Assembly (NCBI GenBank): GCA_023150835.1
Contig: JAKLKB010000030.1
Location: 1 to 55,531, forward strand
Source of the DNA: Myxococcota bacterium
Lineage (GTDB): Bacteria; Myxococcota_C; UBA6777
DNA length: 55,531 nucleotides
Direction of reading: 5' to 3'
Shown: positions 14,001 to 42,214 of the stretch, one piece after another
Position numbering within the stretch: the stretch's first letter is position 1
Layout of the letters: every line of letters starts with the position of its first letter
Notes under the pieces: model-generated
The model's input: the letters and a program-made list of their open reading frames with translations, nothing else
What the model was told of the DNA's origin: nothing
The model's database searches: none
Translations under genes and position numbers: made by a program

Positions 14001-14525
14001 GTGCAAAAGACGAAAAACATATCCATCGCATGGGCGATCTGTTTGTGTAGCGTTTTGTTTCTGCATTGTTCTGGAAAGACACAAACCAAAAATGACGCAA
14101 ATCCCGATCCCAAGGGCGATGCCAACACCACCACCATCAAACAACGCGGATGTATTCGTGGTCGTGTTGTCAACGAAGATGGACAAGGTTTCTCGGGAGT
14201 CCTCGTCAGCACCGATCCTCCAACCAGTCCCGAAGTCTCCGACAGCCGGGGGTTTTTTGAGATCTGCAATCGCCGCGTGATCAAAAACGAAGAGACGGGT
14301 GAAACTGCCAAAGAAGCCATCAAAGACGCCAACTACACCCTAAAACTCAACAAAGATGGCTACCATGCGCGACCTCTCAAATTCGACTACAGCGGCACCA
14401 ATATCAAGCTGCGCAACTTGGTGATGGTCGAAAAAACACGACCCCTCCCCACCGTTGTGCAAACCAAAGTCAAAGAAGGGAAGCGCGACTCGGGACTTGA
14501 ACCCAAAGCGCCGATCTCGGAATGA
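14001..14525 (+). CDS. Lipoprotein with carboxypeptidase-regulatory-like beta-sandwich
   Basis: GTG start after GGAG; lipobox FLHC; IRGRVVNEDGQGFSGVLVSTDP...SDSRGFF...YTLKLNKDGY pattern. Confidence 0.75.
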   Translation: MQKTKNISIAWAICLCSVLFLHCSGKTQTKNDANPDPKGDANTTTIKQRGCIRGRVVNEDGQGFSGVLVSTDPPTSPEVSDSRGFFEICNRRVIKNEETGETAKEAIKDANYTLKLNKDGYHARPLKFDYSGTNIKLRNLVMVEKTRPLPTVVQTKVKEGKRDSGLEPKAPISE

Positions 14526-14683
14526 ACCGTACATCCGAGGAGAGGAGCCTTTGGTGACGCCGATCTTGGCGACAAACCCTTGCGTTCCACATCCCTCAAT
14601 GTGTTTGATCCCACGATGCGTTTTCTCGAACCGTTCGCGTATCCGATGGGAGCGATGTCCACTTATCTTTTGGAGACGTTTGA

Positions 14684-17413
14684 ATGACACAGATGCGTGA
14701 TAGACAAAGGCTTGCTCTCCTCCAAAAGCCTTTTGCTGGATGGGTGCTGGCTCTTTTTGTGGTCGCATCGAGCGTTGCAACGCTCGGATGCAAGGGCAGC
14801 ACCGCTCCCCAAGTAGGCGTCTTCCCGATCAAGGTGGTTGCCCTCACCAGCGACAAAGTCGGTATCCCCAAAGCCAAAGTCAGCATCAACAATACGATGC
14901 TCGGAGAAACCGACCAGTTCGGCACTTTTGTGGGAACTTATCGCGGGAAAGTCCAAGACAAGATCCGCATCAAAGTCGAAGGAGCAGGGCAAGACAACTA
15001 CATGATCATGACCAGCCGCTTGCGCCTGCGAAAAACCGCGCATGGCCTTGCGCCTGCTGAGATCAAAGTCGAAGCCTTCCTGCGTCAGCCCCCTCCCGAT
15101 GCCGAAACCTCTCCCAACCCCCCTCCCAACCCCCCTCCTGCTGATCCAAACGCCACCGGCAACGCCAGCAATGCCACAGCCTCGAATACAGGCAGCAACC
15201 AAGCCACCGTCCCCTCAAAAGGCCCCGATCCCACCCCCGAAAGACCCCCCCCCCCGGCCGAAGAGCGAGGTACGGATTCTCCACCGATCCGAACGCCCCG
15301 ACCTGTTGGCCCCGAAACTCCACCCAAGCCACGCATCAGCGGAAAGTACCGCATCAAGGTCATCGCCAATGTCAGCGGTATCCAAGTGCTCAAAGGAAAG
15401 AAACCACAAGGCGTCATCCGTATCCCCGAAGGCATCGTCTCTGTCAAACACGTAGACAAAAGCGAGTCCCCGCAGCCCGTCACCATTACACTCAAAGCCC
15501 GTAAACCGTGGCTTTACAAAACGCCCGAAGTCACACGAGATGTCGCGCTGAATGTTTCCCAAGAAGAATACGAGATCCGCGTAGACTTTGAAAAAGCCCC
15601 GCCCTTTAAGATCATGGCCCGCGCAAATATCCCCGGAATCCGCGTATCGATGGGCAAAGACAAACAAGAGATCGCCGATCCCAACAACCCCGTTGCTTTC
15701 GAATACACAGGCAAACCCAAAACCCTCACCTTGGTCTTTGTCCCTGCCGATCGAAAAGTCAAGCCTCGACGAATCACCAAAAAAGTCCAACTCGAAGCGG
15801 GAAAGTTCGAATACACCGCCGATACCGCCGAGTTCAAAGCTCCTGAACCCGCTGCCGCCCCCCGCGATCCCGAACCACCCGCACGCGATCGCGAACCCGC
15901 TGTCGCTGTCCGTGATCGCGAACCTGCCGCCGCTACCCGCGACCCCGAACCACCCGCACGCGATCGCGATCCTGCTGTCGCTGTCCGTGATCGTGAACCT
16001 GCCGCACGTGATTCTGAACCTGTCGTGCCTGTTCTTACCCGCGAACCCGCCAAAACTTTCAGCGGAAAGTTCGCCATCACCGTCACCAGCACCGCCAAAG
16101 GGGCCGTCTACAAAAATGGCCGCAAAGTCGGCTCGATCTCCTCCGATGGCGGAAGCTACGTGGTCAAACACACCGACAAAAGCTCCTCTCCCAAACCCAT
16201 CACCATCAAAGTTCGCGCAGCCAAAGCCGATGCCTTCAAAAAACGCGATGTCGAACAAGAAGTTGCACTCGAAGCAGGTCGCGAAACCTACACCTCCGAG
16301 ATCCAATTTGAAAAACGGCCCGGCATCGTCATCAAAGCCTACGCCAACCAAAAAGGCACTCGCATCTCGCTCAAAGGAAAACCCCAAGGCGAGATCGTCG
16401 AGCCTGAGAAGCCCCTCTCGATCGACTACGACGGCTCTCCGCGTGGCAGCCTCACCGTCCTGTTTGTTCCTCCCGGAAACAGCTTCAAACCCCGCAAAGT
16501 CACCAAAACGGTTCGCCTCCAAAGCGGTGTGTTTGAATACGAAGTCCGCGCCGAGTTTAGCGAAGTCGACACAGGCTCCGAAGTCACCCTCAAACCCAAC
16601 TGCTTTCGCCGTTCCAAAGGAAAAAAACGCGTTGTCGTGTTGAAAGCCTCGGCAGGTACGGCATTTTCGCTCAAAAGCTCCGAAGGCGTAGATTGCGAAG
16701 GCGAGTCCCTCTCCAAAACAGGCAAGGCTGGCTTGATCAAAGTCCAGATGCCTGCGGGCTTTGTGCGCGTGATCGCTCAGTTCCCCGATGGGGCCAAAAG
16801 CGAAAAGACCTTTGAAGTCGCCGATGGCGGTGGCAATATGACCGTCTCGTTCTCCCAAGGCGGCAAGCGTTGCAACCTCGACCGCATCCAAGCCAAGATC
16901 CGCAACAGCATCTTCCTCGAAGAAGAAGAAGTCGCTTGCCTGCGCAATGTTCAAAAATCCAATTCGCAATACTTCTCTGCGCATACCTCCCTTTCTCGCT
17001 TCTACTGCCACAAACGCGCCTACAAAAACGGCATCAGCGTTCTTGATGAACTCTACAAAGACCCGCGCAATCGCTTTCAACCCTATCCCGCCATGAGTCT
17101 TGGCATCGAGTACAGCCGCTGTAAAAGCTACGATCGCTCGCTTGATCTTCTCCGTCAGGCCGAACGCACCGCCAACCGCTTCGCCGCCGCAGACAAGTAC
17201 GTCAACCAAAAATCCCTCTACAAAGCCCTTGCAGAAGTCTATGAACGCCGATACTACAGCAAAAAGAACATTACCGATCTTCGCCGTTCGCTCAAATCCT
17301 TCGAACGTTTGGGCGATATCTTGCGTGGGGATGACGACGACAAGTCTTACGCGCAAAAGAACATCACGCGCCTCAAATCCCTGCTCAGCAAACGCGGTGG
17401 CTTGGAAGAGTAA
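14684..17413 (+). CDS. Large lipoprotein with duplicated beta-rich modules, Pro-rich linkers and C-terminal TPR-like helices
   Basis: Lipobox TLGC; internal duplication (SGKYRIKV...KHVDKSESPQPVTI...FEK vs SGKFAITV...KHTDKSSSPKPITI...FEK); RDPEPPARDREPAVAV repeats; helical C-terminus. Confidence 0.8.
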   Translation: MTQMRDRQRLALLQKPFAGWVLALFVVASSVATLGCKGSTAPQVGVFPIKVVALTSDKVGIPKAKVSINNTMLGETDQFGTFVGTYRGKVQDKIRIKVEGAGQDNYMIMTSRLRLRKTAHGLAPAEIKVEAFLRQPPPDAETSPNPPPNPPPADPNATGNASNATASNTGSNQATVPSKGPDPTPERPPPPAEERGTDSPPIRTPRPVGPETPPKPRISGKYRIKVIANVSGIQVLKGKKPQGVIRIPEGIVSVKHVDKSESPQPVTITLKARKPWLYKTPEVTRDVALNVSQEEYEIRVDFEKAPPFKIMARANIPGIRVSMGKDKQEIADPNNPVAFEYTGKPKTLTLVFVPADRKVKPRRITKKVQLEAGKFEYTADTAEFKAPEPAAAPRDPEPPARDREPAVAVRDREPAAATRDPEPPARDRDPAVAVRDREPAARDSEPVVPVLTREPAKTFSGKFAITVTSTAKGAVYKNGRKVGSISSDGGSYVVKHTDKSSSPKPITIKVRAAKADAFKKRDVEQEVALEAGRETYTSEIQFEKRPGIVIKAYANQKGTRISLKGKPQGEIVEPEKPLSIDYDGSPRGSLTVLFVPPGNSFKPRKVTKTVRLQSGVFEYEVRAEFSEVDTGSEVTLKPNCFRRSKGKKRVVVLKASAGTAFSLKSSEGVDCEGESLSKTGKAGLIKVQMPAGFVRVIAQFPDGAKSEKTFEVADGGGNMTVSFSQGGKRCNLDRIQAKIRNSIFLEEEEVACLRNVQKSNSQYFSAHTSLSRFYCHKRAYKNGISVLDELYKDPRNRFQPYPAMSLGIEYSRCKSYDRSLDLLRQAERTANRFAAADKYVNQKSLYKALAEVYERRYYSKKNITDLRRSLKSFERLGDILRGDDDDKSYAQKNITRLKSLLSKRGGLEE
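15863..16006 (+). repeat. 75-bp intragenic tandem duplication encoding RDPEPPARDREPAVAVRDREPAA
   Basis: Units start at 15863 and 15938. Confidence 0.8.
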
Positions 17414-17551
17414 TTCACCGCTTTGAGCCACGCGAGGGACGCTTTTCGCCACTCGCTCTCTCTTTCTCTTGCCGCGATGCGCCGACCCCCTTTGATCAAA
17501 CCGCCCTTGTCTGGGTGGTTTGGTCTTGGGGCTTTTCCTCGGAGCTTTTGA

Positions 17552-19372
17552 GTGGCTCTCCTGAAACGGATGTTCGATCTCTGGAGGTGGTTTGAATTGC
17601 GCTATGCACAGTGGTTTTTGATCGGGTTGTTTTTGGCTCACATCGGATGCACAAAAACGGATCCTCCAACAACGAATACAACAAATACAACAAATACAAC
17701 GAATACAACGAATACAACGAACCCACCAAACACGCGCAAAGGTGCTTCTTCCAACGCATCTTCTTCATCTTCTTTTCCGCGTGTTGTTTTGCCCAAAGCA
17801 ACGCTCGATCCGACATGGTGGCCGAAAAGTTGGTTGGCGGCCATCGTTTCGGATTACAAGGTGCTGTTTCCTTTGCTCGGTCCCCAAGCCCGAGGAACAG
17901 AGACGCATCGAGCCGCGATGGCTTTGCGAAAAAACGATCTGATGGCTTATCTCAAAAAGCCCGTTGATCCGAAAAAAAAGATGTCTCGCGATGCGCAGAT
18001 CCTTCGCGGACGGCTGTTGCTTCGCGCCGCACGTTTTTACGCAGAGCTTTCCGAACTTGTGCTTGCGCTTAGCGAGGATGTTTTTTCTCAACGCTTTGCT
18101 CTTCGACAACGCCTTCAAATCGGCCAACTCTTTCCTCTTTACCGAGGCCGTTTGCTGTGCCTTCGCAAAAACTTCAAAGCCGCACAAGAACAGTGGAGCC
18201 TCGCAGAAAAAATCACCCCCCCAAACCGCCGATCCCGCCTTGCTTTTTGGAAGGCCCTTTGCCAAGACTCCCCCCTCGCCCAAAAAAACAGCCTTCTCGA
18301 ACAATCCGACTTTTCAAAAGATCCCGATACTTGGGCTGATTGGATGCTCGTTCGCGCTTTTTGGAGCCTCTCTCCAAACAACAAACCGCAATCCCCCACT
18401 CCCCGCGCCGAACTCTACTTTGCTTTGACCCAAGATGCCCCAAAGATCCCCTATGATGCCCTTCGTTCCGTCATGGACGAAGAAACCATCAAAGAAGGCG
18501 ACGTCGACGCAACGCTCGAATACTACGATCCCGGCCTACCTTGGTTGCTTGCACAACACCACGCCCGCAAAGCCCTTCACGCTTTCCAACAGATCGATCC
18601 CGCCGATCCCAGCGCTGCTCTCGGCCAAGCCGAAGCCTTCGCTTTGCTCGGCCTGCACCAACAAGCCACACAAGCCGTCCATCTCTTTCTCAAAACACCA
18701 CCCAAACAGATCGATTGGGCGATGCAAGTGTTTTCGCCTTTCCTCTCCCCCAACGATCTGCTCCTTCGCGCACGTTTGCTGCGTCTGCGCCTTCTTTCCT
18801 CGACCAACAAAGCTGCTCACAAAACCGCGCTCGATGGCCTCCAACAACTCCACGATCAACACCCACATTGCCCTGCTCGCCTTTGGATCGCTGAAACGTC
18901 CTTGTATCGGGAAAATACACCCAAACATTACAACACGATCCTTGCCTGTGCAGACCTTTCCACCGATCTGCTCAAACAATTGCAATCTTCGCTCGATCAA
19001 CAGACCGACGGTGCCAAGTACGTCGCCCAAAATCGCCTGACTCGCTATGCTTTGCGGGCCTTCTTCCAAACTGCCGCACAGTCCGCACTTTTTCACGGCG
19101 ACCGCGAACGTGCCGTCCGTTGGTTCGAGCTTTTGCACCAAAAAGATCAACCTTATCTGATCGGCGGCGACAACCAAGCCGCGCAGATCCTCTCCACCAC
19201 ACGCGCTTATCTGCGTATGTCGCGTTGGGGTGTCGCTTACCTCTTCCTCGGTAAAAATCGCCAAACCTACCCCTCGCTCAACCAGCCATGGGCTTTGCTT
19301 GGAACTCTTCGGATCTTCCGAGGCATGAGCGCAAATGACGGCGGCGGCGGACCGGGACCCAAAGGCGATTGA
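17552..19372 (+). CDS. Helical (TPR-like) probable lipoprotein with TTN-repeat linker
   Basis: Lipobox-like FLIGLFLAHIGC; (TTN)6 linker; mostly helical TPR-like body; its stop overlaps the next start. The start codon is uncertain. Confidence 0.75.
   Translation: MALLKRMFDLWRWFELRYAQWFLIGLFLAHIGCTKTDPPTTNTTNTTNTTNTTNTTNPPNTRKGASSNASSSSSFPRVVLPKATLDPTWWPKSWLAAIVSDYKVLFPLLGPQARGTETHRAAMALRKNDLMAYLKKPVDPKKKMSRDAQILRGRLLLRAARFYAELSELVLALSEDVFSQRFALRQRLQIGQLFPLYRGRLLCLRKNFKAAQEQWSLAEKITPPNRRSRLAFWKALCQDSPLAQKNSLLEQSDFSKDPDTWADWMLVRAFWSLSPNNKPQSPTPRAELYFALTQDAPKIPYDALRSVMDEETIKEGDVDATLEYYDPGLPWLLAQHHARKALHAFQQIDPADPSAALGQAEAFALLGLHQQATQAVHLFLKTPPKQIDWAMQVFSPFLSPNDLLLRARLLRLRLLSSTNKAAHKTALDGLQQLHDQHPHCPARLWIAETSLYRENTPKHYNTILACADLSTDLLKQLQSSLDQQTDGAKYVAQNRLTRYALRAFFQTAAQSALFHGDRERAVRWFELLHQKDQPYLIGGDNQAAQILSTTRAYLRMSRWGVAYLFLGKNRQTYPSLNQPWALLGTLRIFRGMSANDGGGGPGPKGD
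17669..17722 (+). repeat. 9-bp intragenic tandem repeat x6 (ACAACRAAT)
   Basis: Read directly from the sequence; encodes TTNTTNTTNTTNTTNTTN. Confidence 0.9.
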
Positions 19373-20958
19373 ATTCGCGCAAACAAGGAGAACTTGCTGT
19401 GAGAGCTAGAGATCGATGGCAAAAAGGGCATCGCCCCTTGATCTGCGTTGCGGTGGCTCTGTGTCTCGGATGGACGATGGGATGGGCTGCTCCTCCTCCC
19501 CTCAAATACGCCGAAGACCGCGCCCCTTCAAGCCTCAATCCCATCTATGCGGATGATATGTATTCTGAGCGCGCCTCCGAATTAATCTTCGAACGTTTGA
19601 TCGGCTTTGACAAAGTTCAAAAGCCCGCACCCATGCTCGCCACCAAGTGGGTCGTCGGCGAAGACAAAAAATCCATCACCATGACCCTTCGACAAGGCGT
19701 CAAGTGGCACGATGGCGAAGCCTTTACCGCCCAAGACGTCGACTTCACCATCAAGATGATGACCAGCCAACGCTCCCAGATCGCCGACCGCTATCTGGCG
19801 CAGATCATCAAAAAAGTGACAGTCTCCGATCCACACACCATCCTCATCGAATTCAAAAAAGCCCTCAGCAAGCCCGAGCGCTGGTTTCAATTCAAGATCA
19901 TCCCCAAACACCGCTTCAAATCGGGCATGGTCACGCGCACCGATTACTTTAGTCAAAAACCCTTCGGCACTGGGATCTTTCAGTTCAACAAATGGGACGG
20001 TCGAAAGATCATCCTCCGGCGAAACAGCAGCCACTGGGGCCCCAAAAAGACCAAACTCTCCGGCGCGACGCTTCAGATCATCCCCGACAAAAACATCCAA
20101 GTCGAAGTCCTCCGATACGGCGGCATCGACGCGATCATCCGCGTTCGTCCAAAAGATCTCCCCACCTTCGAGCGCGATCAAAACGTCCGCTTGTATCCGT
20201 ACTCGACCAACGACTGGTGGTACATCGGCCTCAATCACAAAGGCGTCTTTCGTGATCGCGGTGTCCGCGAAGCCTTTGTGTATGCCCTTGACCGCGAATC
20301 CTTGCGCAGCGCCCACCTCGGCGACGGGCAGGTGATCAGCGGCCCTTTTTCCCCCAATGATCCGCTCTACAACTTTTCGATCACTCCGCGCAGCCAAGAT
20401 GCCGAAAAAGCCGGCCAACTGCTCGATAGTGCAGGCTGGAAAAAAGCAGGCGAGTTTCGCAAAAAAGGCGGTAAAACCTTAAAAGTCCGCATGGTCTTGC
20501 CCAAAAGCAAAGACTCTTACAAGCCCTTGGTCTTGGGGATTCAAGGCGAGTTGCGCAAAGTCGGCGTAGACGTCGAATTGGTGTGGCTCAACGATGCCGC
20601 ATGGTCGCGTGAGATCTTCATCAAAAAAGGTTTCGATATGACCCTTCATATCTGGAACTTTGACGATCTCTCCACCATCTACCCGCTCTTTCACTCTCGT
20701 GGTTCGCGCAATTACATCGGCTACAAAAGCAAAGAAGTCGACAATCTCTTGCGCAAAGCCACCCTCACCACCGACCCCGTGATCTACAAAGCCATCTACG
20801 GAAAACTTCACAAGATCCTTCACGACGAAGTCCCTTACATCTTTCTTTGGTCTCTCACCAACTATTCGTCGGTGGTCTCGCGTGTCGAAAAAGTGACCAT
20901 CCACCCCTTCAATTATTTTCATTATGTGTCGGAGTGGAGAAAGCGCGTCGCAGAGTAA
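19369..20958 (+). CDS. Family 5 (Opp/Dpp) ABC substrate-binding protein 1
   Basis: LRQGVKWHDGEAFTAQDVDFT, PFGTGIF, VREAFVYALDR and DEVPYIFL motifs; N-terminal signal peptide. Confidence 0.92.
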   Translation: MNSRKQGELAVRARDRWQKGHRPLICVAVALCLGWTMGWAAPPPLKYAEDRAPSSLNPIYADDMYSERASELIFERLIGFDKVQKPAPMLATKWVVGEDKKSITMTLRQGVKWHDGEAFTAQDVDFTIKMMTSQRSQIADRYLAQIIKKVTVSDPHTILIEFKKALSKPERWFQFKIIPKHRFKSGMVTRTDYFSQKPFGTGIFQFNKWDGRKIILRRNSSHWGPKKTKLSGATLQIIPDKNIQVEVLRYGGIDAIIRVRPKDLPTFERDQNVRLYPYSTNDWWYIGLNHKGVFRDRGVREAFVYALDRESLRSAHLGDGQVISGPFSPNDPLYNFSITPRSQDAEKAGQLLDSAGWKKAGEFRKKGGKTLKVRMVLPKSKDSYKPLVLGIQGELRKVGVDVELVWLNDAAWSREIFIKKGFDMTLHIWNFDDLSTIYPLFHSRGSRNYIGYKSKEVDNLLRKATLTTDPVIYKAIYGKLHKILHDEVPYIFLWSLTNYSSVVSRVEKVTIHPFNYFHYVSEWRKRVAE

Positions 20959-21000
20959 TGTTCTCTTTGGTTCATCCCTCAACGGAGCGATCTCGACGTC

Positions 21001-22005
21001 ATGGAAATCCTTCGCATCATCGCAAAAACCGTCTTTTTTTATCTGTTGGTGATCCTTGGGGCGACTTTTGTCATGTACGCTCTTTTGTGGGCTGCCCCGG
21101 GCGATCTAACGGACGTGCTTTGCCCCAAAGGCTGCGAGCCAGAAATGCGCCGAGAACTGATCAAAACGTGGGGCCTTGACAAGCCAATGATCGTTCAATA
21201 TGGCCGATGGTTGGGGGATGCTGCACGTTTTCGCTTTGGAACGTCGGTCTCTTTGCGACAAGGAGCGCCTGTCACCGAACTGCTCGCTCCTGCCATGCGG
21301 ATCACCGCATGGATGGTGTTGGGGGCTGCTTTGTTGACGTTGTTTCTGGCCTTTTTTTTGTGCTGGCGGCCCCTGCGCTTCTTTTCTCGGTGGCTGCTGC
21401 GGTTGGGCCAATTTCCTTTGGTTGTGTTGTCCTTCGCTCCGTTGTATATCCTCGCCTATTGGTCGGTGATGTTGACGAGCCGTGGGCCGGCTTGGTTGGT
21501 TCAGCAAGGGTGGCTTGACCCCAAAACCCTCGGACGTTGGCGTGATCTGGACTTGATCCCTTTTGGGCAACAAGTCAGCGATGAAGCGGGATGGCTGACC
21601 TTGATCCCGTTTTTTGTTTCGATGGTGTTGCTTGCCCTCGGCAACAACAACCTCGCCGAACAAGCGTCAAGTTTGCGCGGCGAGATCGAACACCTCAAAG
21701 GGCAGGACTTTATGCGGGCTGTTCGTGCGAAAGGTGCGTCTTTTTGGGCGCATTTTCTCCATAACTTGCTCCTGCCTGTCACGCAGTTCTTTAGTACGCG
21801 TGCCATCCTTTTGCTCGGTACGGTGGTGATTATCGAAACCATCATGAGCATCAACGGCGTGGGATGGCTGCTTTGGCAAGCTGCCGAGATGCGCGATACA
21901 CCTGTTGTCCTCGCCATCGCCTTGTTCGCAACGGTGCTTGCGAGTCTCCTTCAGATGCTCAACGAGATCGCGCTCAAACTGATCGACCCACGTTTGCGCC
22001 GATAA
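21001..22005 (+). CDS. Opp/Dpp ABC permease (OppB-like)
   Basis: APGD, WGLDKPMIVQYGRWL, EAA-like DFMRAVRAKG, RDTPVV and IDPRLR motifs. Confidence 0.9.
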   Translation: MEILRIIAKTVFFYLLVILGATFVMYALLWAAPGDLTDVLCPKGCEPEMRRELIKTWGLDKPMIVQYGRWLGDAARFRFGTSVSLRQGAPVTELLAPAMRITAWMVLGAALLTLFLAFFLCWRPLRFFSRWLLRLGQFPLVVLSFAPLYILAYWSVMLTSRGPAWLVQQGWLDPKTLGRWRDLDLIPFGQQVSDEAGWLTLIPFFVSMVLLALGNNNLAEQASSLRGEIEHLKGQDFMRAVRAKGASFWAHFLHNLLLPVTQFFSTRAILLLGTVVIIETIMSINGVGWLLWQAAEMRDTPVVLAIALFATVLASLLQMLNEIALKLIDPRLRR

Positions 22006-22048
22006 GCACTTCTGTGATTCGACACGAGTCGATACGAGTCCATACGGA

Positions 22049-22249
22049 TCATACGAAATCCGCCCGTTGTGTGAGCGAAATAGGGTAGGGGCAGCCCCCT
22101 GTGGCTGCCCAAGAACAGGGCGGCTACTCGGATTCACTCCTGAATCCCTGCTCACTGTCGAGGGGCCAGCCCCCTGTGGCTGCCCAAGAACAGGGCGGCT
22201 ACAGCGGAGCGCACTCACCCTTACGTGCACACTTCTCTCGGATATCGCA
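22049..22249 (+). mobile_element. MITE/REPIN-like repeat, copy C (contains duplicated REP core)
   Basis: TCATACGAAATCCG...CGGATATCGCA, with two copies of CAGCCCCCTGTGGCTGCCCAAGAACAGGGCGGCTAC. Confidence 0.8.
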
Positions 22250-22270
22250 CCAGTACGAGGAGATCCATCC

Positions 22271-23827: not shown

Positions 23828-23886
23828 GGACGTTTTGAGTCTGGTCTTCCTCCTCTCGTTGCCGTGCGTGCGGAAGGTTCGGTACT

Positions 23887-24753
23887 TTGTTTCAGCGACT
23901 CCAAGTTCTCTTGCGTGAGAATCCCCACTTGTTTTTTGGCCTCGCCTTTGTCTTGCTCTTGTTGGCGTCTTGCTTGATCGGAGCCTTGTATCCGTACGAT
24001 CCCGTCATCGCTCGAATGCAAGGCAACACCCCATTGCAAGACCCTTCTTGGCGCTTCTGGCTCGGTACCGATCACTCGGGCCAGTCTCTCTTGATCTTGC
24101 TGATCAAAGGCACGCAGGCATTCTTTTTTCCGGGTATCCTCGCCTCTTTCCTTGCCCTTTTGGGCGGGATCTCCCTCGGAGCTTTCGCTGGCTTTTATGG
24201 CGGATGGATCGAACAGATCGGACGCTACCTCAGCACCCTAATCAACTCCTTCCCCAACCTCATCCTTGTTCTCTTGTGTACCACCGTCTTTGGACCCAAC
24301 GTCTATCTGATCGCGGCCATCGTCGGCATCACGTTTGTCCCCCATATCGCCGAAGAGATCCGACGCAAAGTCGCTCAACTCAAAGCCGAAGAATTCGTCA
24401 TGGCCGCCGAAGCGCACGGCCTACAAGAACGACGTATCCTCTTTTTGCACATCGTTTGGTTGCACTGCCTCCCCCTGATCCTTCGCCAATTGGTGTTTCT
24501 ATGGAGCGCCTTGATCATCCTCGAAACAAGCCTCAACTACCTCGGACGCGGCGTTTTGCAAAAAGGCATCTCATGGGGAAAGATGCTTTATGATTACCGA
24601 AGTGGACTTTTTCGCGGCGAGATCTGGAGTCCGTTGGTGGTCACTTTGGTTGTGATGCTCACGATGAGCGGCCTGTATCTGTTTGCGGAAGGGCTTCAAC
24701 GATGGAGCCAAGGCAAGGGCGTTTTGCACCAAGAACAGCCTTTGGATAGCTAA
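23887..24753 (+). CDS. Opp/Dpp ABC permease (OppC-like)
   Basis: FWLGTDHSG, EEFVMAAEAHG, ETSLNYLG and SWGKML motifs. Confidence 0.9.
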   Translation: MFQRLQVLLRENPHLFFGLAFVLLLLASCLIGALYPYDPVIARMQGNTPLQDPSWRFWLGTDHSGQSLLILLIKGTQAFFFPGILASFLALLGGISLGAFAGFYGGWIEQIGRYLSTLINSFPNLILVLLCTTVFGPNVYLIAAIVGITFVPHIAEEIRRKVAQLKAEEFVMAAEAHGLQERRILFLHIVWLHCLPLILRQLVFLWSALIILETSLNYLGRGVLQKGISWGKMLYDYRSGLFRGEIWSPLVVTLVVMLTMSGLYLFAEGLQRWSQGKGVLHQEQPLDS

Positions 24754-24818
24754 ATTCCATACCTCCCAAATACCCCCAATCCACGGTGCTTTGAGACGAT
24801 CGTGTCGAAGGGATCTCC

Positions 24819-25784
24819 ATGAGCGAACAACCGCAAACACAACCCCACTCCCCCCCCAAACCTTTGCTCGAAGTGGAACAACTCAAGATCCATTTTCGCA
24901 GTCGTGGGCGTTTGGTGCGGGCTGTCGATGGCGTGTCTTTCTCCGTCGGATCTGGCGAAGGTATCGCCGTGATCGGAGAGTCGGGCAGCGGAAAAACCCT
25001 CTCCGCGCTCGCGACATTGGCCTTGGTCGGCGGCGAACCCGGCGTTGTTTCGGGAGCCATCCGCTACCAAGACGATACGCTCCAAACCGATCTGCTCCAA
25101 GGTATCGAAGCTTGTTTCCGACAAGAACAAGGCACCTACAAACCGACGTGGAAGGCCGAAGGATGGCGTCATGCGTATCGTGAACGCGCTACCGCTCTCG
25201 CAGGCCGAAAGATCGGCATTATCTTTCAAAATCCCATCTCTTCCCAAGATCCGCTGTGGTCGGTCGGGCGCACGCTCAGCGAGTCCATCCGTCTGCACAA
25301 CCCCAAAGCCACGCGCAAAGAAGCGTCGCAAGAAGCCGAACACTGGCTCGAACGCGTTCATATCAAAAACCCCGCAGGTGTCATGCGCTCTTATCCGCAC
25401 CAACTCTCGGGGGGGATGTGTCAGCGTGTGATGATCGCCTCGACGCTTGCGATGCGACCGCGTATCATTATCGCCGATGAGCCGACCACTGGCTTGGATA
25501 TGACCACCAAAGCCCAAGTTCTTTATTTGCTCCACGAAGCTCGCGAAAAATACGGTAGCAGCCTGATCTTTGTCACCCATGAGATCGGCTTGATCTCGGG
25601 CTTAACCGAGCGAGTGCTCGTGATGCGGCGTGGCCATGTTGTCGATCATTTCGCAACATCCGACCTCTTGGATGTCAAGATGCGTGGGGAGACCCTCGAA
25701 ACCTCCCACGAATTCGCAGAGCACACACAAGATCTTTTGCGTTGCAGCCTTGCGCTCGAAGAGCGCCGCGCACGCGTGTTGTAA
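24819..25784 (+). CDS. Opp/Dpp ABC ATPase (OppD-like)
   Basis: RAVDGVSF, GESGSGKT, YPHQLSGGMCQRV, IADEPTTGLD and VTHE motifs. Confidence 0.93.
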   Translation: MSEQPQTQPHSPPKPLLEVEQLKIHFRSRGRLVRAVDGVSFSVGSGEGIAVIGESGSGKTLSALATLALVGGEPGVVSGAIRYQDDTLQTDLLQGIEACFRQEQGTYKPTWKAEGWRHAYRERATALAGRKIGIIFQNPISSQDPLWSVGRTLSESIRLHNPKATRKEASQEAEHWLERVHIKNPAGVMRSYPHQLSGGMCQRVMIASTLAMRPRIIIADEPTTGLDMTTKAQVLYLLHEAREKYGSSLIFVTHEIGLISGLTERVLVMRRGHVVDHFATSDLLDVKMRGETLETSHEFAEHTQDLLRCSLALEERRARVL

Positions 25785-25797
25785 AGAGGGCGAGATC

Positions 25798-26877
25798 ATG
25801 GAAGAAAAGGTCGAGCTGATGCAAGACTCCAGCACCCAAAACGCTGCGCCCCTCACGACACAGACGGGCCCCACACCCATCCTCGTCGCCGAGACCGTCT
25901 GCAAGTTTTATCCGATCCGCCGTTCTCTCCTCGAACGCCTCCGCCGCCAACCGCCTCGCTTTGTTCGTGCCGTCGATCTCACTTCCTTGTGCTTGATGCC
26001 CGGTGAAGTCGTCGGATTGATGGGCGAATCCGGCTGCGGAAAAACCACCCTCGGCAAGATCCTCTGCCGTCTGATCCCCCCCACCTCCGGCAAGATCCAA
26101 CTCATGGGAAAAGATATCACTTCTCTTCGTGGTGAAGAACTTCGCCGACTCCGACCCCGCTTTCAGATGCTCTTCCAAAACCCCTACTCCACCCTCAACC
26201 CCAAGATGAACGTCCACAACACCCTCCTCGAAACCCTGCGCGTCAACCTCCGCCTCACCCCTTCCGACGAAGAGCAACGTATCCAAGAAGTTCTCGCTCA
26301 AGTCGGACTCCCTCACAAACGCTACAGCTTCCCGACCGAGATGTCCGGTGGAGAACGCCGAAGAGTCGGCTTGGCGCGCTTGTTGCTGCTGCGCCCATCG
26401 CTGATCGTCGCCGATGAACCCGTCGCCGGCCTTGATGCCTCGATCAAGGCCAAGATCGTCGATCTGATGATGGAAACGCGCACCCCCGAAGTCGCTTATC
26501 TATTTGTCTCCCATGATCTTCATGTCATACGTTATGTCGCGGATCGCGTCTTGGTCATGTTTTTGGGCTTGATCGTCGAAGAGTTGCCCATCGCCACCTT
26601 CGAGGAAGAGCTTCATCACCCCTACACCAGCACGCTTCTCCACGCAGCTCGTCAAGTCAGCCTCCACAACTCTTCCCAATCCAAAGTGGACTTCTCTGAC
26701 TTGCCCTCCCACAACGAAGCCGTTGGCGCAGGATGCCCTTACGTTCATCGTTGCCCTTGGGCTGGACATGAAGTCCCCAAGATCCGCTGCCTTGAAGAGA
26801 GGCCCCCCTTGGTGCCTGTCGCTGCAAACCACCGCATCGCCTGTCACCGCTTTTCCCCTACACCGGAGAGTCTTTGA
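25798..26877 (+). CDS. Opp/Dpp ABC ATPase (OppF-like)
   Basis: GESGCGKT, MSGGERRR, VADEP and HPYT motifs; C-terminal GCPYVHRC...C...ACH. Confidence 0.93.
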   Translation: MEEKVELMQDSSTQNAAPLTTQTGPTPILVAETVCKFYPIRRSLLERLRRQPPRFVRAVDLTSLCLMPGEVVGLMGESGCGKTTLGKILCRLIPPTSGKIQLMGKDITSLRGEELRRLRPRFQMLFQNPYSTLNPKMNVHNTLLETLRVNLRLTPSDEEQRIQEVLAQVGLPHKRYSFPTEMSGGERRRVGLARLLLLRPSLIVADEPVAGLDASIKAKIVDLMMETRTPEVAYLFVSHDLHVIRYVADRVLVMFLGLIVEELPIATFEEELHHPYTSTLLHAARQVSLHNSSQSKVDFSDLPSHNEAVGAGCPYVHRCPWAGHEVPKIRCLEERPPLVPVAANHRIACHRFSPTPESL

Positions 26878-27800
26878 TGTTTCGCATCGCTACTTTCTTC
26901 TTTTCTCCCCTCTCTCTCGGCTTTGTTCTGGTTCTTTCTCTTTCTTCGGCTTCTGCTCAAGACTTCCGCCAGATGGCCGAAAAGGGCAAAATTCTCCTCG
27001 AAAGACAGCTTTATTCAGATGCAATTCAAGAGCTTTTGGCAGCATCCCAGACGCCCGAAGGCAAACAAAACGCCGAGGTTCATTACCATTTAGGCTTGGC
27101 TTATTATCGCGTTGCGATCATCGATCGTGCGATCCTTGCGCTCGAACGATCCGTCACGCTTGCCAAAGCAGACCCCGAACGCCAGCGACCCGCCCTGCTG
27201 CTCGAACAAATCAAGCAGCTTTTTACCAAAGTTCAGATCACCCTCGAAGTGGACCCCGATGAACTCGGAAAAGTGGTGATCCAACTCGAACCCACCGAGC
27301 CCTTCAGCAACCTACAAAAACGCCGCGCCCACGCCATGCTCGCCAAAAAATGGAGACAAGGCACCTCACTCAAAACAGGCGCGTATTACCTACCCAAAGG
27401 CACTTACCGCTTTGGGATGCAGCAGCCGACTTGCCTGAGTTATGGCTTTTTTCTCAACAACCAACCGATCAAAACGCTCGATGTCGCCGATGCCACCGTC
27501 CAATTGGCGATCAAAGACAAACCGACCTGCGTCTGCGAAGGCGGGCAAGTCCTCAAACAAGATGCCAAAAAACGTTATTGCACTTGCCCCGAAGGCACCT
27601 TGTGGTCACAACGCGAAAACCGTTGTGAGATCCCCAAAAATGCCGCTGCTCCGCCCTCTTGGATCTCCAAAAACTGGCCGTGGGTCACTGCCTTGACGGT
27701 GATCGTTGTGGCGGCGGGTGTGACGGTTCCTGTCTTGCTTGTGATGAATAACAACAGCCCGCAAAAAGCTGAATTTTCCAAAGGATTTGACTTCAAATAA
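26877..27800 (+). CDS. Exported TPR + Cys-rich protein with C-terminal membrane anchor (paralogue 1)
   Basis: TGATG overlap with the oppF-like stop; signal peptide ending ASA-Q; TPR (VHYHLGLAYY); CVCEGG...YCTCPEG...RC; WISKNWPW followed by a TM helix. Confidence 0.8.
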   Translation: MFRIATFFFSPLSLGFVLVLSLSSASAQDFRQMAEKGKILLERQLYSDAIQELLAASQTPEGKQNAEVHYHLGLAYYRVAIIDRAILALERSVTLAKADPERQRPALLLEQIKQLFTKVQITLEVDPDELGKVVIQLEPTEPFSNLQKRRAHAMLAKKWRQGTSLKTGAYYLPKGTYRFGMQQPTCLSYGFFLNNQPIKTLDVADATVQLAIKDKPTCVCEGGQVLKQDAKKRYCTCPEGTLWSQRENRCEIPKNAAAPPSWISKNWPWVTALTVIVVAAGVTVPVLLVMNNNSPQKAEFSKGFDFK

Positions 27801-27852
27801 CCGTACGCCATCTTGGTATGGCTTGACACCTGCGCCACAAGAAGGCGTACGG
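27801..27852 (+). terminator. Imperfect 15-bp inverted repeat immediately after stop
   Basis: CCGTACGCCATCTTG ... CAAGAAGGCGTACGG. Confidence 0.4.
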
Positions 27853-27878
27853 GTTCGGCCTTCAACGCCACACAAGAG

Positions 27879-27994
27879 TCATACGAGATCCGCTCGTTGT
27901 GTGATCGTAAAAATGTAGGAGCAGCCCCCTGTGGCTGCCCAATAATCGGGCGTCTACGAATGATGCTTTGTGTACACATCACCCGGATATCGTA
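27879..27994 (+). mobile_element. MITE/REPIN-like repeat, copy D
   Basis: TCATACGAGATCCG...GTAGGAGCAGCCCCCTGTGGCTGCCCAATAATCGGGC...TGTGTACACATCACCCGGATATCGTA. Confidence 0.8.
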
Positions 27995-28044
27995 TCAGCA
28001 TCGCCTTCGCCCTGTGGGGCTGATCGTGCGAAAAGGAGAGATCG

Positions 28045-29130
28045 ATGAAGAGAATTTGTGCTCGATGGCTTTTGTTGCTCGGATTTCTCGTGCTTTCCGC
28101 AGCTTCCGCAAATGCCAGCCTCAAAGAGATCACGGTGGATGCGACCAAAGCACACTGCCAACACCCCAAGTTCTCCCCTGACGGCGCACTGCTCGCCTTT
28201 GAAGTCCGTCACGTCGAGAAACGCGCCATCGACTTGCGGATCTACGATGTGCGCTCTGGCGAAACCAAGATCATCCGCGCCGGAACCACCGTTCTCGACG
28301 AAGATTCCGACAAACGCGGCATGGTCGCACGAGAGTTGTCTTGGGCTCCTACAGGCCATCGCTACCTCTACACCAGCAACGGTAGCGGCAACGTCTATGA
28401 CATCTATATGTCCCGCGAGGGCCGCTTAAAATGGAGTTCGCGTTCCAAAAACGACGGGCAGCCCGCGTGGTCGCCCGACGGAAAACGCATCGTCTTCACT
28501 TCGGCCCGCACAGGAAAAGGCGACTTGTACTGGGTTAACGTCAGCAAGATGAATCCCCGACGCTTAACCAAAAATCCCGAAAGCACCGAGTTTTTTGCTG
28601 CATGGGACCCCTCCAACAGCAAACGCCTCGCTTACGTCCGACACACCGATCAAAGCGATCGCATCTACCTGATCGACAACATCTTTGCCCCTTCGCCTGT
28701 TCGCCTTACTTCGTGGAAAAGCAATATCTCCGAAGTTGGCCCTTCGTGGTCTTTAGACGGCAAATCCATCGCCTTTTTTGGTGTCCGCGAAGACGGTAGC
28801 GCAAACCTCTATCTCAGCGGCGTTGGAGAAAAACCAAAACTCCTCGCCCGCAACATCGCAAAAAGCGATCAATCCGGCCCTGCTTGGTCTCCCGATGGCA
28901 AACATATCTTTTTTGTCCAAAAAAGCACCGCAAATACCGATGTGATCACCGCCATCCACGTCGAAACCAACGCCAAACGCACCATCGACACGGGAACCCA
29001 AGTCAACAACGAGCTTTCCGTCGTCGCGAGTGGTGGAAAGTGGCACATCGCTTTTTCTTCTCAAGGCAAAACTTCCTCCAACGATAAAGTCTACCGCAAA
29101 CTCTATATCAAAACCATCGATCCCTTCTGA
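28045..29130 (+). CDS. TolB-like PD40 beta-propeller protein (no TolB N-terminal domain)
   Basis: Signal peptide; repeated P.WSPDG motifs (PKFSPDG, PAWSPDGKRIVFTS, PSWSLDGK, PAWSPDGK); AAAGGAG RBS. Confidence 0.88.
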   Translation: MKRICARWLLLLGFLVLSAASANASLKEITVDATKAHCQHPKFSPDGALLAFEVRHVEKRAIDLRIYDVRSGETKIIRAGTTVLDEDSDKRGMVARELSWAPTGHRYLYTSNGSGNVYDIYMSREGRLKWSSRSKNDGQPAWSPDGKRIVFTSARTGKGDLYWVNVSKMNPRRLTKNPESTEFFAAWDPSNSKRLAYVRHTDQSDRIYLIDNIFAPSPVRLTSWKSNISEVGPSWSLDGKSIAFFGVREDGSANLYLSGVGEKPKLLARNIAKSDQSGPAWSPDGKHIFFVQKSTANTDVITAIHVETNAKRTIDTGTQVNNELSVVASGGKWHIAFSSQGKTSSNDKVYRKLYIKTIDPF

Positions 29131-29176
29131 GCTAGGCGACACCTTGCCCAAGATCGCTCGCCGAAAGGAGCCGAAT

Positions 29177-30133
29177 ATGCGGAAGAAACCCGCCCTGTGG
29201 GGAATCGTCTTGATGACTTGGGTGGCCGTAGGACTCGGCTGCCAAACCGCTTTCGCACAAGACGAAGTGGACTTCGACGAAAACTATCGCTCAGGTCGAG
29301 AGATGGTGAGTCAGAATCTTTACATGGACGCTGTGCGATTGTTGTACCCCGCTGTCTTTAAAACATCTCGTGGAAAAAAACACTTTGGTGCCAACTACTT
29401 CCTTGGGATGGCCTATTATCACGTCGGCAGCGTGACCCAAGCGATGAAGGTACTCACCACAGCGCGAGCGCTTGCCCGAAAACGCAATCAACGCGAACTG
29501 TTGTATCCTTTGCTCAAAAAGATCAGCAAAGACTTTGGTGAGCTTCAGGTGATCTCCGAAGCGGGCGCGGATAGTCCAAAGATCCTCAAGATCGCGCTCA
29601 CGCCGCAAAAAGCCTTCACTGACTCGATCCAACGCCGCGCCTTTTCGATTATCGCCGACCTTTGGAGTAAAAAGGGCATCCAGTTTGAAAACACCAAGAC
29701 GCTTTGGCTACCCAAAGGCGAGTACTTCTTGCAGATACCTCAGCCGATGTGTCTGTCGTATGCCTTTACCATCGGTGGAACCGTCGTGAGCGACTTGAGT
29801 ATCGGCGATAGTGCCGTAAGCATCGGCCTCAAGGACGTGCCAAGCTGCAAATGCCTTGGGGGGCAAGTCTTAAAAATAGAAGCGAAAAAACGCTATTGCA
29901 CTTGTCCAGACGGCAATATCTGGGCGTCCGAGCGCAAACGCTGCATCCTCCAACAATCGACGGACAACCGAAGCTGGCTTGCACGCAATTGGCCTTGGTT
30001 GACGGTCGTTGGGGTGGTCGTCGTCGCTGCTGCGGTCGCCATCCCTGTGGGGTTGGTGGTGGCTCAAAATCAAGATCGTGATATCAGCTTCGGAAAAACC
30101 GACCTGTTTTTGCGCCGCGATCTTCCGCGTTGA
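29177..30133 (+). CDS. Exported TPR + Cys-rich protein with C-terminal membrane anchor (paralogue 2)
   Basis: Collinear with 26877-27800 (LPKG.Y, QP.CLSY.F, C.C.GGQVLK..AKKRYCTCP.G..W, NWPW-TM); AAGGAG RBS. Confidence 0.8.
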   Translation: MRKKPALWGIVLMTWVAVGLGCQTAFAQDEVDFDENYRSGREMVSQNLYMDAVRLLYPAVFKTSRGKKHFGANYFLGMAYYHVGSVTQAMKVLTTARALARKRNQRELLYPLLKKISKDFGELQVISEAGADSPKILKIALTPQKAFTDSIQRRAFSIIADLWSKKGIQFENTKTLWLPKGEYFLQIPQPMCLSYAFTIGGTVVSDLSIGDSAVSIGLKDVPSCKCLGGQVLKIEAKKRYCTCPDGNIWASERKRCILQQSTDNRSWLARNWPWLTVVGVVVVAAAVAIPVGLVVAQNQDRDISFGKTDLFLRRDLPR

Positions 30134-30144
30134 GGAGACAACTT

Positions 30145-31713
30145 ATGCGTCTGTGGCCCTCTCTACACGGCACTTTTCGTCTGTTGATCGTGATCTTGGC
30201 CGTTGCTGCGCCTGTTGTGGCATACGCCAAAGATCGCACCGCGATCTTTGTACAAAGTCTCGAACCCAAAAACCCCAACGCCCAAAAAACCAGCGGCGAG
30301 ATCAACTGGCTCTTGCGTGCGTTGAGCCAAGCCTCTCTTGCGGACAAAGGCGAGGCTTTGTTGGATCGCGGCTTGTTTTTCTCGAACGCAGAAGCCCTTG
30401 CTGCGGGCAATTGGCTTCGTCGAGCGCAGATAGCTCTCAACGAAGGTATGCAAAACTACGCTTCCGATCCTTCCGCTGCTTTGGAACCTTTGCTCAAGGC
30501 CAGTCGCTTTCTCGAATACACCTTCGCTTATTTCCCTGTGATCGAGCCGATGCGCGTCTCTCGCCTTGCTTCGGGGTTGCTTTATTGGCGAAAGGGTGAA
30601 AAAGCCCTCGGGATGAAGATGATGCAAACAGGCATCCTCCTTGATCCCAAATCTGCCGATATGCCCGAAGCGTTCTCCGATGCAGAAAAAGAGATGATCT
30701 CTGCGGTGCGTTGCAAACTCTCGATGCAACGCACTTCTACGCTGACGATCCAAGCCTTTGATCCCCGCACCGAGCTTTATCTCAACGATAAGTTCGTTGG
30801 CTTAGGCAAAGTCGACCTCAAAAACCTTCGCTCGGGCGAGTACATGATCAAGATGATGCTTGACGGATACCGACATTACAAACGCAAGTTCACGCTCGGT
30901 AAAAGTGGACGTGTATTTGCGCGAAATCGTCCCGGGCCACGCATCCATTTTTATGAGGAGCTTTGTAAAAAGTTCCCGAGCATCTCCAACGATGAGCAAC
31001 TCAAAGACGAATTGAAAGCGGCGGCTTCCACGCTGCGTCTCAAAAAAGACCGTGTCACGCGCTTTTTGGTGGGCTGCTTTCAACCTTCGGGCAACGGCAA
31101 CGTCGGAAACCTCAAATGGTTTGCTCTCGAAGGCGACAAGATGCAAAAAGGCAGTTGGAGCGTTCCCCCCTCCACCAAAGCCCGTATACGTGGCCTCAGC
31201 AAGCTGATCTCCGCGCTCGGACTCCAATCCAACAATCAAGAACCCTCGATGTTGCAATACGCTTCGCTCGCCCCACAAAGCGACTGCAAAGAACCCAACA
31301 ACATCGAACTCCCGCCGCTAATGCCCCCCAAAAGCGATCCTCCGATGTGGACCGTCTCTCCCGGGGATGCGATCACGCTCAGCACGCACCACGGTTTCCG
31401 CTTACAGGGCACTGTCCTTGCCATCGACGGCGAAACCCTCACCCTCGAAGTCTCCAAGAACAAAAGCGACCCCACCGCGCTGCGACAAGTCAAGATCCAA
31501 CGCAAAGAAGTCAAATGGACATTTATTCTTGGACCAAAGCAAGAGGGTGGGTTTCGCATCGGAGAACGTCTGATCGTGATCTCCGTCTTTGGTTTAGTTC
31601 TTCATGGGGTTCTTGCCGCGGATGATGGAGAGAAAATGCGCTTACAAACCAAGCATGGCAGCGAAGTGATCCCTTGGTCGATGATCCGACGAGTGATCCG
31701 CCGCGATTCTTGA
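30145..31713 (+). CDS. Exported PEGA-domain protein with helical N-region and two small C-terminal beta domains
   Basis: GAGGAG RBS; signal peptide; PEGA motif TLTIQAFDPRTELYLNDKFVG...LRSGEYMIKMMLDGY. Confidence 0.78.
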   Translation: MRLWPSLHGTFRLLIVILAVAAPVVAYAKDRTAIFVQSLEPKNPNAQKTSGEINWLLRALSQASLADKGEALLDRGLFFSNAEALAAGNWLRRAQIALNEGMQNYASDPSAALEPLLKASRFLEYTFAYFPVIEPMRVSRLASGLLYWRKGEKALGMKMMQTGILLDPKSADMPEAFSDAEKEMISAVRCKLSMQRTSTLTIQAFDPRTELYLNDKFVGLGKVDLKNLRSGEYMIKMMLDGYRHYKRKFTLGKSGRVFARNRPGPRIHFYEELCKKFPSISNDEQLKDELKAAASTLRLKKDRVTRFLVGCFQPSGNGNVGNLKWFALEGDKMQKGSWSVPPSTKARIRGLSKLISALGLQSNNQEPSMLQYASLAPQSDCKEPNNIELPPLMPPKSDPPMWTVSPGDAITLSTHHGFRLQGTVLAIDGETLTLEVSKNKSDPTALRQVKIQRKEVKWTFILGPKQEGGFRIGERLIVISVFGLVLHGVLAADDGEKMRLQTKHGSEVIPWSMIRRVIRRDS

Positions 31714-32169: not shown

Positions 32170-32178
32170 GATGTTTCC

Positions 32179-42195: not shown

Positions 42196-42214
42196 GCGTC
42201 ACTCCTGCCAAGGT

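Follow-up and report, generated by a model that had tools for sequence, protein, structure and literature searches.

Opp-family ATP-binding cassette (ABC) importers are textbook five-part systems; the one considered here is encoded in a single run with a series of exported scaffold-type proteins. The locus in question lies on contig C176 (JAKLKB010000030.1) of an uncultured Myxococcota bacterium, an activated-sludge metagenome-assembled genome of 7.56 Mb that is 93% complete and whose lineage, in a GTDB-based collection, is a phylum with six species in 3 genera and one family. The entire contig of 55,531 nucleotides is the window analyzed here, and the block under study consists of 13 open reading frames (ORFs) at 14001–31713, all on the plus strand. 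A sequence-only reading of the window had described 13 co-oriented genes: three lipoproteins (lipo1–lipo3), two substrate-binding proteins (SBP1 and SBP2) in the order SBP-OppB-SBP-OppC-OppD-OppF, two paralogues with tetratricopeptide repeats (TPR), cysteines and a transmembrane (TM) helix (TPR/Cys/TM #1 and #2), a PD40 propeller and a PEGA-like protein. The ORF list and Pfam place every ORF where it had been described and bear out this order, and the co-oriented block begins further upstream than that range, with an ABC-F gene and a small Cys-rich lipoprotein that we call g1 (Table 1). With a probability of roughly 0.6, we read the locus as an operon-like block of one lineage built around the only PepT-type importer detectable in its genome, in which binding of lipo3 to family-5 SBPs has independent support and a role for the other exported proteins is read from their position. 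Lipo3 is probably a direct partner of the importer's SBP.

The importer parts themselves are ordinary, and what is new is the proposed pairing of an SBP with a partner. Profiles for the SBPs, permeases and ATPases match throughout (Table 1); OppF also contains oligo_HPY (PF08352, E = 3.7e-7), and OppD matches ABC_tran with no oligo_HPY match in Pfam. All transporter parts score far under every NCBIfam equivalog cut-off. SBP1 has its best NCBIfam matches in NikA and Opp4A and its closest PDB relatives in 8efz and AppA (1xoc), OppB resembles Opp4B/Opp2B, OppC reaches 144 bits of the 350 set for Opp4C, OppD is YejF/NikD/CntF-like, and OppF is DppF-like at 257 bits against 408. Against NikA, Opp4A, CntA, GsiB and DppA the SBPs reach much the same scores, all far under the cut-offs, and these do not separate the substrate class; a peptide would be the default for the PepT family. 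Across the 93%-complete genome, OppB and OppC match only themselves, and the importer is therefore the only PepT-type (Opp/Dpp/Nik) system that can be detected in it. Two SBP paralogues serving one permease pair are known in this family, as in MppA with OppBCDF. A tree places the duplication of the two SBPs before the split of the genera, and the relative G004 has a single SBP at the locus.

Evidence for the pairing comes from a predicted complex of SBP1 (res. 44–529) with lipo3 (res. 88–595), whose median interface score (interaction prediction score from aligned errors, ipSAE) was 0.77 compared with 0.00 for the best of three controls, a value that expresses the model's own confidence and is not a measurement. 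The mark used for this score is reached by 116 of 157 solved complexes and by 2 of 215 mismatched pairs; both counts are rough, as our own alignments were used. Separate runs shared at least 85% of their contacts, with a partner pLDDT (predicted local distance difference test) of at least 84, and the model supports binding of lipo3 to SBP1. On the SBP side, 17 of the 22 interface residues are invariant across all eight SBPs, orphans included, versus 168 of 464 elsewhere in the chain (hypergeometric P = 1.5e-4). These residues fall within the motifs PYSTNDWW, FSPNDPLY and TTDPVIYKAIY, the first two of which, used as patterns, retrieve only this lineage from 185,579 species genomes. On the lipo3 side, mean identity is higher at the interface than elsewhere (0.64 vs 0.47). 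The predicted interface takes in lipo3 residues 583–594, immediately before a conserved C-terminal tail, together with SBP residues 432–434 in a W-N-F-D-D stretch, which, judged by rough position, would correspond to the ligand-amine-binding Asp of OppA/DppA.

The lipo3 partner belongs to a very small family, with 50 representatives at E ≤ 1e-3 and 24 at E ≤ 1e-30 among 1.84 billion proteins. An AlphaFold2 (AF2) model (pLDDT 82.8) shows an all-α TPR-like solenoid with one β-hairpin, and a fold search returned generic TPR matches only, with TM-scores of at most 0.26 (TMq) and 0.42 (TMt). The range folded in the complex (res. 88–595) ends before the tail, which in nearly all family members is a Gly-rich stretch followed by Lys (or Arg) and one to three small residues (PKGD, VKTG, VKGG, IKG, PKSG). 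Of the 27 strong representatives, 25 reach the C-terminus, the other two being N-terminal fragments; 23 of the 25 show the pattern and two deviate at the last residue (a script count of 24/27 includes a fragment whose match is due to chance). The tail is also present in all seven lipo3-family sequences taken from the loci. A distant family of ~500–570-aa TPR proteins (P0033–P0056) appeared in the representative search at E values of 1e-11 to 1e-3; its members have weak TPR matches only in Pfam and a conserved flexible C-terminus that ends in GQ in 14 of 24, and P0033 matched, weakly, only the lipo3 genes of G000 and G001 among 401 genomes.

A second context for the lipo3 domain is provided by long-form paralogues of 690–780 aa, present in each relative, in which ~60 N-terminal helical residues and a hydrophobic (TM) helix precede a lipo3-like domain. 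An extracytoplasmic function (ECF) sigma gene overlaps the start of the long form in all four cases with upstream sequence (G003:C617, G005:C78, G004:C165 and G001:C264). This is the layout of a sigma/anti-sigma pair, and the long forms are putative anti-sigma factors. In G003, an SBP_bac_5 paralogue of the same subfamily, 61% identical to SBP1, lies directly after the long form. In G004, the last 36 nt of the long-form contig match nt 5–40 of a contig that opens with an SBP gene of that subfamily (97% identity), and an orphan SBP probably lies downstream of the long form there too; a lipo1 paralogue sits directly upstream of the ECF sigma gene on G004:C165. In the window's genus, to which G000 and G001 belong, the gene that follows the long form on G000:C181 is without a Pfam match. 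The long forms make up one clade (100/99) that spans three genera, and the duplication that produced them is therefore old.

Taken as a mechanism, lipo3 would be a membrane-anchored docking or hand-off partner that serves the SBPs on their way to the importer, and its sister domain would serve a putative ECF anti-sigma factor as the part that senses signals in the periplasm, paired with an orphan SBP of its own. As that copy would have its own SBP, the same contact between SBP and TPR domain would operate in uptake in one setting and in signalling in the other. The remaining exported proteins (lipo1, lipo2, both TPR/Cys/TM paralogues, the propeller and the PEGA-like protein) may be co-transcribed envelope scaffolds that organize the importer in the periplasm, a suggestion drawn from position only. 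Of the dedicated trans-envelope complex proposed in the sequence-only reading, the lipo3-SBP part has gained support from the long-form context, the complex model and interface conservation; the system as a whole stays unproven, and its downstream half is joined to the importer by strand, coupling and position only.

The arrangement of the block is that of closely spaced genes. The TGATG at 26875–26879, which couples oppF to TPR/Cys/TM #1, and the 11-nt gap at 30134–30144 between TPR/Cys/TM #2 and the PEGA-like gene are present as had been noted, each with a GGAG upstream. The claimed overlap at 19369–19372 is doubtful: it requires a TTG start for SBP1, and a GTG at 19399 behind AAGGAG is the likelier one, which leaves a gap of 26 nt. 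In the relative G004, lipo3 overlaps the SBP gene by 4 nt, and oppF overlaps the TPR/Cys gene by 4 nt as well; in G005, 14 nt separate the latter two. SBP2 likely starts at GTG 22271, and oppF and TPR/Cys/TM #2 probably start at ATG 25798 and ATG 29177, respectively. The initial ~68 codons of the SBP2 ORF belong to an abundant repeat element, whose copy at 22034–22266 gives 1032 blastn high-scoring segment pairs on 193 of 239 contigs; the copy at 27860–28040 gives 781 on 196 of 239, and a further copy lies at about 10941–11030, before the ABC-F gene. The repeat copies make the ORFs of SBP2 and ABC-F look longer at the N-terminus than they are and account for the long oppB-SBP2 and TPR/Cys/TM #1-PD40 gaps, each of which holds one. 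The counterpart of the oppB-SBP2 gap measures 43 nt in G003, and that of the TPR/Cys-PD40 gap 70 nt in G004 and 107 nt in G005. A promoter scan stayed at chance level (7 sites vs 7.0 expected), and a terminator scan found no convincing plus-strand terminator within the block.

The same arrangement recurs in relatives. Orthologues of lipo3, SBP, PD40 and PEGA are found in four of five, and the order ABC-F, g1, lipo1, lipo2, lipo3, SBP, OppB, (SBP), OppC, OppD, OppF, TPR/Cys, PD40, PEGA is the same in G004, in G005 and in the contig fragments of G003. Wherever the region is assembled (G001, G003 in fragments, G004 and G005, three genera in all), the accessory orthologues stay linked with the ABC genes and their order is unchanged, and in none of these relatives were they found unlinked. 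Accessory proteins are 29–56% identical between genera: lipo1 55% in G004 and 38% in G005, PD40 51–56% in G003–G005, and the PEGA-like protein 37–40%; g1 shows 31–33% identity by tblastn in two loci (L014 and L016) and keeps its position in G004 and G005. The Opp locus has a second TPR/Cys copy only in the window's genus and one copy in G003, G004 and G005. The relative G002, of the same genus and 64% complete, was considered as a case of joint loss; it lacks the block together with the orthologues of both flanks and is uninformative.

No copy outside the lineage appeared in word-based protein searches, the representative search, or the genome-collection and metagenome scans. The word-based searches returned five matches for TPR/Cys/TM #1 and two for lipo3, all in close relatives, and a scan of the 185,579 species genomes with the SBP alignment found six loci, all of this lineage, a result uninformative on other phyla. 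A metagenome scan with six TPR/Cys sequences gave five loci, three of them real and of this lineage and two spurious TPR matches.

RNA-library contigs from two studies (activated sludge and a bioreactor) cover the whole block, and the RNA and DNA runs that contain the stretch come from activated sludge, wastewater and bioreactors. Contigs of both studies bridge lipo1-lipo2, lipo3-SBP1, SBP1-oppB and PD40-TPR/Cys/TM #2; the oppF-TPR/Cys/TM #1 junction is bridged in one study only (X2/X3). RNA contigs break at both repeat copies, with joints of the 27860–28040 copy to the one at 22085–22112. Depths per segment in X2 are about 54, 37, 23, 12, 17 and 52, contig depth being unable to rank genes. 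In the Pro-rich region of lipo2, the RNA contigs of either study differ from the window by a cluster of four substitutions in a 10-nt stretch (15248–15257), probably strain variation.

Several results weigh against the reading of the block as a functional unit centered on lipo3 and the SBPs. Besides the nature of the complex score, the lipo3 side of the predicted interface is not enriched for invariant columns (4/29 vs 48/479, P = 0.34). No anti-sigma Pfam family (e.g. zf-HC2/ZAS) was found in the initial 100 residues of any of the four long forms at E values up to 1. The long form on G005:C78 is followed by a Ser/Thr kinase, a trypsin-like protease and a 1363-aa WD40 protein and not by an SBP, the long-form contig C264 of G001 holds no SBP of the subfamily, and adjacency of ECF sigma, anti-sigma and SBP genes is certain in one of the four long-form loci with downstream sequence examined and probable in a second. 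RNA contigs are compatible with long transcripts and cannot show a single one; one of them crosses the convergent boundary between the PEGA-like gene and gltG, so DNA carry-over or read-through is possible. The relatives all come from one family of one small phylum and are non-independent. Collinearity among genera continues into unrelated flanks (window 5366–40369), with a two-component system and the ABC-F gene on one side and a Glt-like operon on the other, and conserved adjacency is therefore weak evidence of function. Finally, TPR/Cys/TM paralogues occur away from Opp genes, as tandem pairs between secA and a convergent 1442-aa Stig1-repeat protein and, on a metagenome contig (locus L033), beside an MXAN_6577-like Cys-rich protein.

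These last observations bring up the best-surviving alternative, which we consider rather unlikely: that an ordinary Opp importer and unrelated envelope proteins have stayed neighbors by descent in a long collinear region, and that the TPR/Cys, PD40 and PEGA proteins might serve a Glt/Nfs-like machine. Collinearity well past the block and the settings of the TPR/Cys/TM paralogues, beside the SecA/Stig1-repeat protein and the MXAN_6577-like protein, are what it would predict, and ~400-aa PEGA proteins are a common type among Myxococcota, with a second PEGA gene at 45699–46952 of the window itself. It would also be in keeping with the requirement for AglU, a TolB-like lipoprotein, in the gliding of Myxococcus xanthus. 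A Glt/Nfs-like operon does converge on the block from the minus strand (31753–42928), with all parts below equivalog cut-offs; it holds genes matching GltG, CglF, GltE and GltC, the GltG-like match being strong (8.2e-84) and extending to an AgmX/PglI C-terminal domain, and the window showed no motor genes of the AglRQS type. These minus-strand genes correspond to the Agl-Glt/Nfs core complex as far as it is described in the accessible part of Luciano et al. 2011 (PMC3169522), a text in which ABC or oligopeptide genes occur 0 times. However, the operon lies on the strand opposite to the block, and lipo1–lipo3, TPR/Cys/TM #1 and #2, PD40 and the PEGA-like protein match no Glt, Cgl or Nfs model of NCBIfam. 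Shared descent also leaves aside the common strand of the block genes, the TGATG or 4-nt coupling of oppF to TPR/Cys in two genera and the short gaps that remain once repeats are discounted, and for the upstream half it is hard to reconcile with the lipo3-SBP evidence.

The evidence that favors lipo3-SBP binding could also be read with the emphasis reversed, so that sensing is the main task of the SBPs and lipo3 regulates instead of helping: it would hold or occlude the SBP, for example by its tail, and gate OppBC as its anti-sigma-like paralogue would gate the ECF sigma factor. The presence of the same domain in a putative sigma/anti-sigma pair, the inclusion of SBP 432–434 in the predicted interface and the position of the SBP-touching lipo3 residues directly before the conserved tail all agree with it. 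However, the tail is outside the modelled range, and inhibition and hand-off fit the results alike; we regard this version as improbable, more so than shared descent. A related and tentative proposal, prompted by the presence of lipo3 583–594, just before the conserved tail, and of SBP 432–434 in the predicted interface, takes the lipo3-like domain as a new kind of co-receptor for Opp-type SBPs with a tethered ligand: the flexible tail (...P/V-K-G-G/D) would occupy the peptide cleft until displaced by free substrate, upon which the loaded SBP would be handed to OppBC or, in the anti-sigma form, the ECF sigma factor released. We hold it to be doubtful, about as much so as shared descent. The earlier suggestion that the system handles prey-derived peptides or muropeptides in a predatory bacterium finds no support in any result. 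The preferred reading stays that of a docking or hand-off partner for the SBPs of this importer.

The other exported proteins are all made of TPR and PEGA-like β-sandwich modules. Signal peptides with a Cys lipobox can be read from the translations of lipo1, lipo2 and lipo3, clear in the latter two and atypical in lipo1, whose Pfam matches are weak (PF13715/PF13620, E = 0.004). None of g1, lipo2 and lipo3 has a match in Pfam or NCBIfam; lipo2 contains an internal repeat (res. 213–385 vs 451–625, tblastn) and has an Atlas score of 0.90 to CarboxypepD_reg/TPR clusters. The TPR/Cys/TM family (14 aligned sequences) combines a signal peptide, three TPRs, a β-sandwich with YLPKGxY (PEGA-like, by eye), six invariant cysteines and a C-terminal TM helix; the AF2 model of #1 (pLDDT 81) gave TPR-only fold matches in a search that was effective for res. 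26–145 only. Three relatives of #1 (P0003–P0005) share 63%, 50% and 42% identity with it. The PD40 propeller reaches 109 bits of the 343 required by the TolB model TIGR02800 and aligns with profile positions 241–388 only, so it is without the N-terminal TolB domain. The PEGA-like protein falls just under the PF08308 cut-off (19.7 vs 20.8 bits) and has an Atlas score of 0.93 to Myxococcota PEGA clusters of ~400 aa. The second PEGA-domain protein of the window (minus strand) matches PF08308 at 3e-13, and an MXAN_6577-like cysteine-rich repeat protein (5.6e-105) is encoded at 51241–52794, also on the minus strand.

Table 1. Features of the importer block, the convergent operon and related loci. 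Coordinates refer to the window unless a locus handle (L) precedes them.
Feature	Coordinates	Strand	Basis or remark
g1, small Cys-rich lipoprotein, acidic Pro/Glu tail	13350–13733	+	translation, located start
lipo1, 174-aa exported or lipoprotein, one CarboxypepD_reg/PEGA-like β-sandwich	14001–14525	+	weak Pfam PF13715/PF13620
lipo2, 909-aa lipoprotein, duplicated ~170-aa β-rich unit, Pro-rich spacers, C-terminal helical Cys-containing domain	14684–17413	+	lipobox ATLGC, internal repeat
lipo3, 606-aa TPR-like all-α lipoprotein, one β-hairpin, C-terminal ...PKGD tail	17570–19372	+	AF2 model, family alignment
SBP1, family-5 (Opp/App/Nik-type) substrate-binding protein	19399–20958	+	SBP_bac_5 (PF00496), 1.6e-68 in ORF 19369–20958; start revised
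OppB-type permease	21001–22005	+	PF00528 (BPD_transp_1) and PF19300
Abundant repeat copy (MITE-like, resembling a miniature inverted-repeat transposable element), between oppB and SBP2, not part of the system	22034–22266	.	blastn
SBP2, SBP1 paralogue, 70% identical (tblastn)	22271–23827	+	PF00496, 3.7e-68 in ORF 22067–23827; start revised
OppC-type permease	23887–24753	+	PF00528 (BPD_transp_1)
OppD-type ATPase	24819–25784	+	PF00005 (ABC_tran)
OppF-type ATPase, oligo_HPY, Cys-rich C-terminus	25798–26877	+	PF00005 (ABC_tran, in ORF 25630–26877) and PF08352; start revised
TPR/Cys/TM #1	26877–27800	+	weak TPR_11 (in ORF 26874–27800); TGATG coupling to oppF; alignment; AF2
Second abundant-repeat copy, in the gap from TPR/Cys/TM #1 to PD40	27860–28040	.	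blastn
Exported PD40 β-propeller	28045–29130	+	PF07676, 5e-28
TPR/Cys/TM #2, paralogue of #1 (36% identical)	29177–30133	+	start revised; only in the window's genus
PEGA-like, 522-aa exported protein, helical N-terminal part, PEGA-like domain, C-terminal β-rich part	30145–31713	+	PF08308 just under cut-off (in ORF 30130–31713)
Glt-like operon, 138-aa ORF		−
Glt-like operon, GltG-like	32339–34507	−
Glt-like operon, CglF-like	34636–35022	−
Glt-like operon, GltE-like	35088–36392	−
Glt-like operon, 1304-aa TPR protein	36455–40369	−
Glt-like operon, GltC-like	40366–42195	−
Glt-like operon, OMP_myx_plus β-barrel	42215–42928	−
ECF sigma genes (Sigma70_r2 + r4_2)	L019:1641–2273; L021:6579–7217; L022:5833–6654; L037:378–1088		Pfam
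ECF sigma/long-form loci	L019:1641–6256 (G003:C617); L022:5415–8710 with L023:129–1877 (G004:C165/C156); L021:6579–11410 (G005:C78); L037:378–3424 (G001:C264)
Tandem TPR/Cys/TM pairs	L024:8545–10593 (G000:C7); L020:10229–12294 (G002:C19)		flanking Stig1-like Cys-rich repeat proteins, ~1420–1440 aa

If lipo3 is a dedicated lipoprotein partner, it would insert a further step on the way from the outer envelope to the binding protein, and to our knowledge nobody has looked for such a step. If the lipo3 domain also works in a sigma switch, it would give Gram-negative-type cells a simple way to turn a gene on in response to a peptide outside, in cells where Opp-based peptide sensing is otherwise thought to require prior import; on the tethered-ligand proposal, this would be an SBP-coupled, competition-based sigma switch that shares parts with a transporter. 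In the open-access literature searched, we found neither an anti-sigma factor described as coupled to an SBP nor an Opp SBP described as having a TPR lipoprotein for a partner. The lipo3-SBP pair is small enough for work with purified proteins despite the uncultured organism, and interest in the 13-gene "system" at large stays local unless contacts are demonstrated.

Among known systems, the closest in its transport core is the group of Opp/App/Dpp/Nik importers (Transporter Classification 3.A.1.5), such as the AppA-type system of B. subtilis and OppABCDF of E. coli, whose operons likewise encode a family-5 SBP of cluster C along with two permeases and two ATPases. The block differs from them in the lineage-specific invariant motifs of its SBPs and in its eight exported non-transporter proteins (the seven of the sequence-only reading plus g1), one of which is predicted to bind the SBP. 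The exported PD40 propeller adjoining envelope TPR proteins recalls Tol-Pal, where TolB goes with CpoB/YbgF; unlike TolB, the propeller here has no N-terminal TolB domain, and the block holds no TolQRA or Pal genes.

The long forms find a likeness in DdvA/DdvS of Myxococcus xanthus, an ECF sigma factor with a transmembrane anti-sigma factor whose large periplasmic domain contains TPRs (PMC11506125, in its accessible part). The authors of that work consider that the signal may come via another periplasmic protein (PMC11506125). Judged by what that part of the paper describes, the long forms share with DdvA a single membrane pass and a gene position behind that of an ECF sigma factor; in both, a short N-terminus faces the cytoplasm and helical repeats form a large domain in the periplasm. 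They differ from it in that they have no zinc anti-sigma motif, Pfam anti-sigma match or CHAT protease domain, and in that the neighbor is an SBP and not a defence island.

Signalling by an SBP through a membrane partner is established for LuxP-LuxQ and TorT-TorS. The GlnH-GlnX-PknG system of mycobacteria works on the same principle, according to the accessible part of its description (PMC6069109). Compared with these systems as so described, the present one would be alike in that a periplasmic SBP reports its ligand to a membrane-anchored partner encoded next to it, here through a predicted contact. In contrast to their kinase or four-helix sensors, the partner would be a TPR-like domain mounted on a putative ECF anti-sigma factor, and the same kind of domain also occurs as a free lipoprotein in the operon of an importer.

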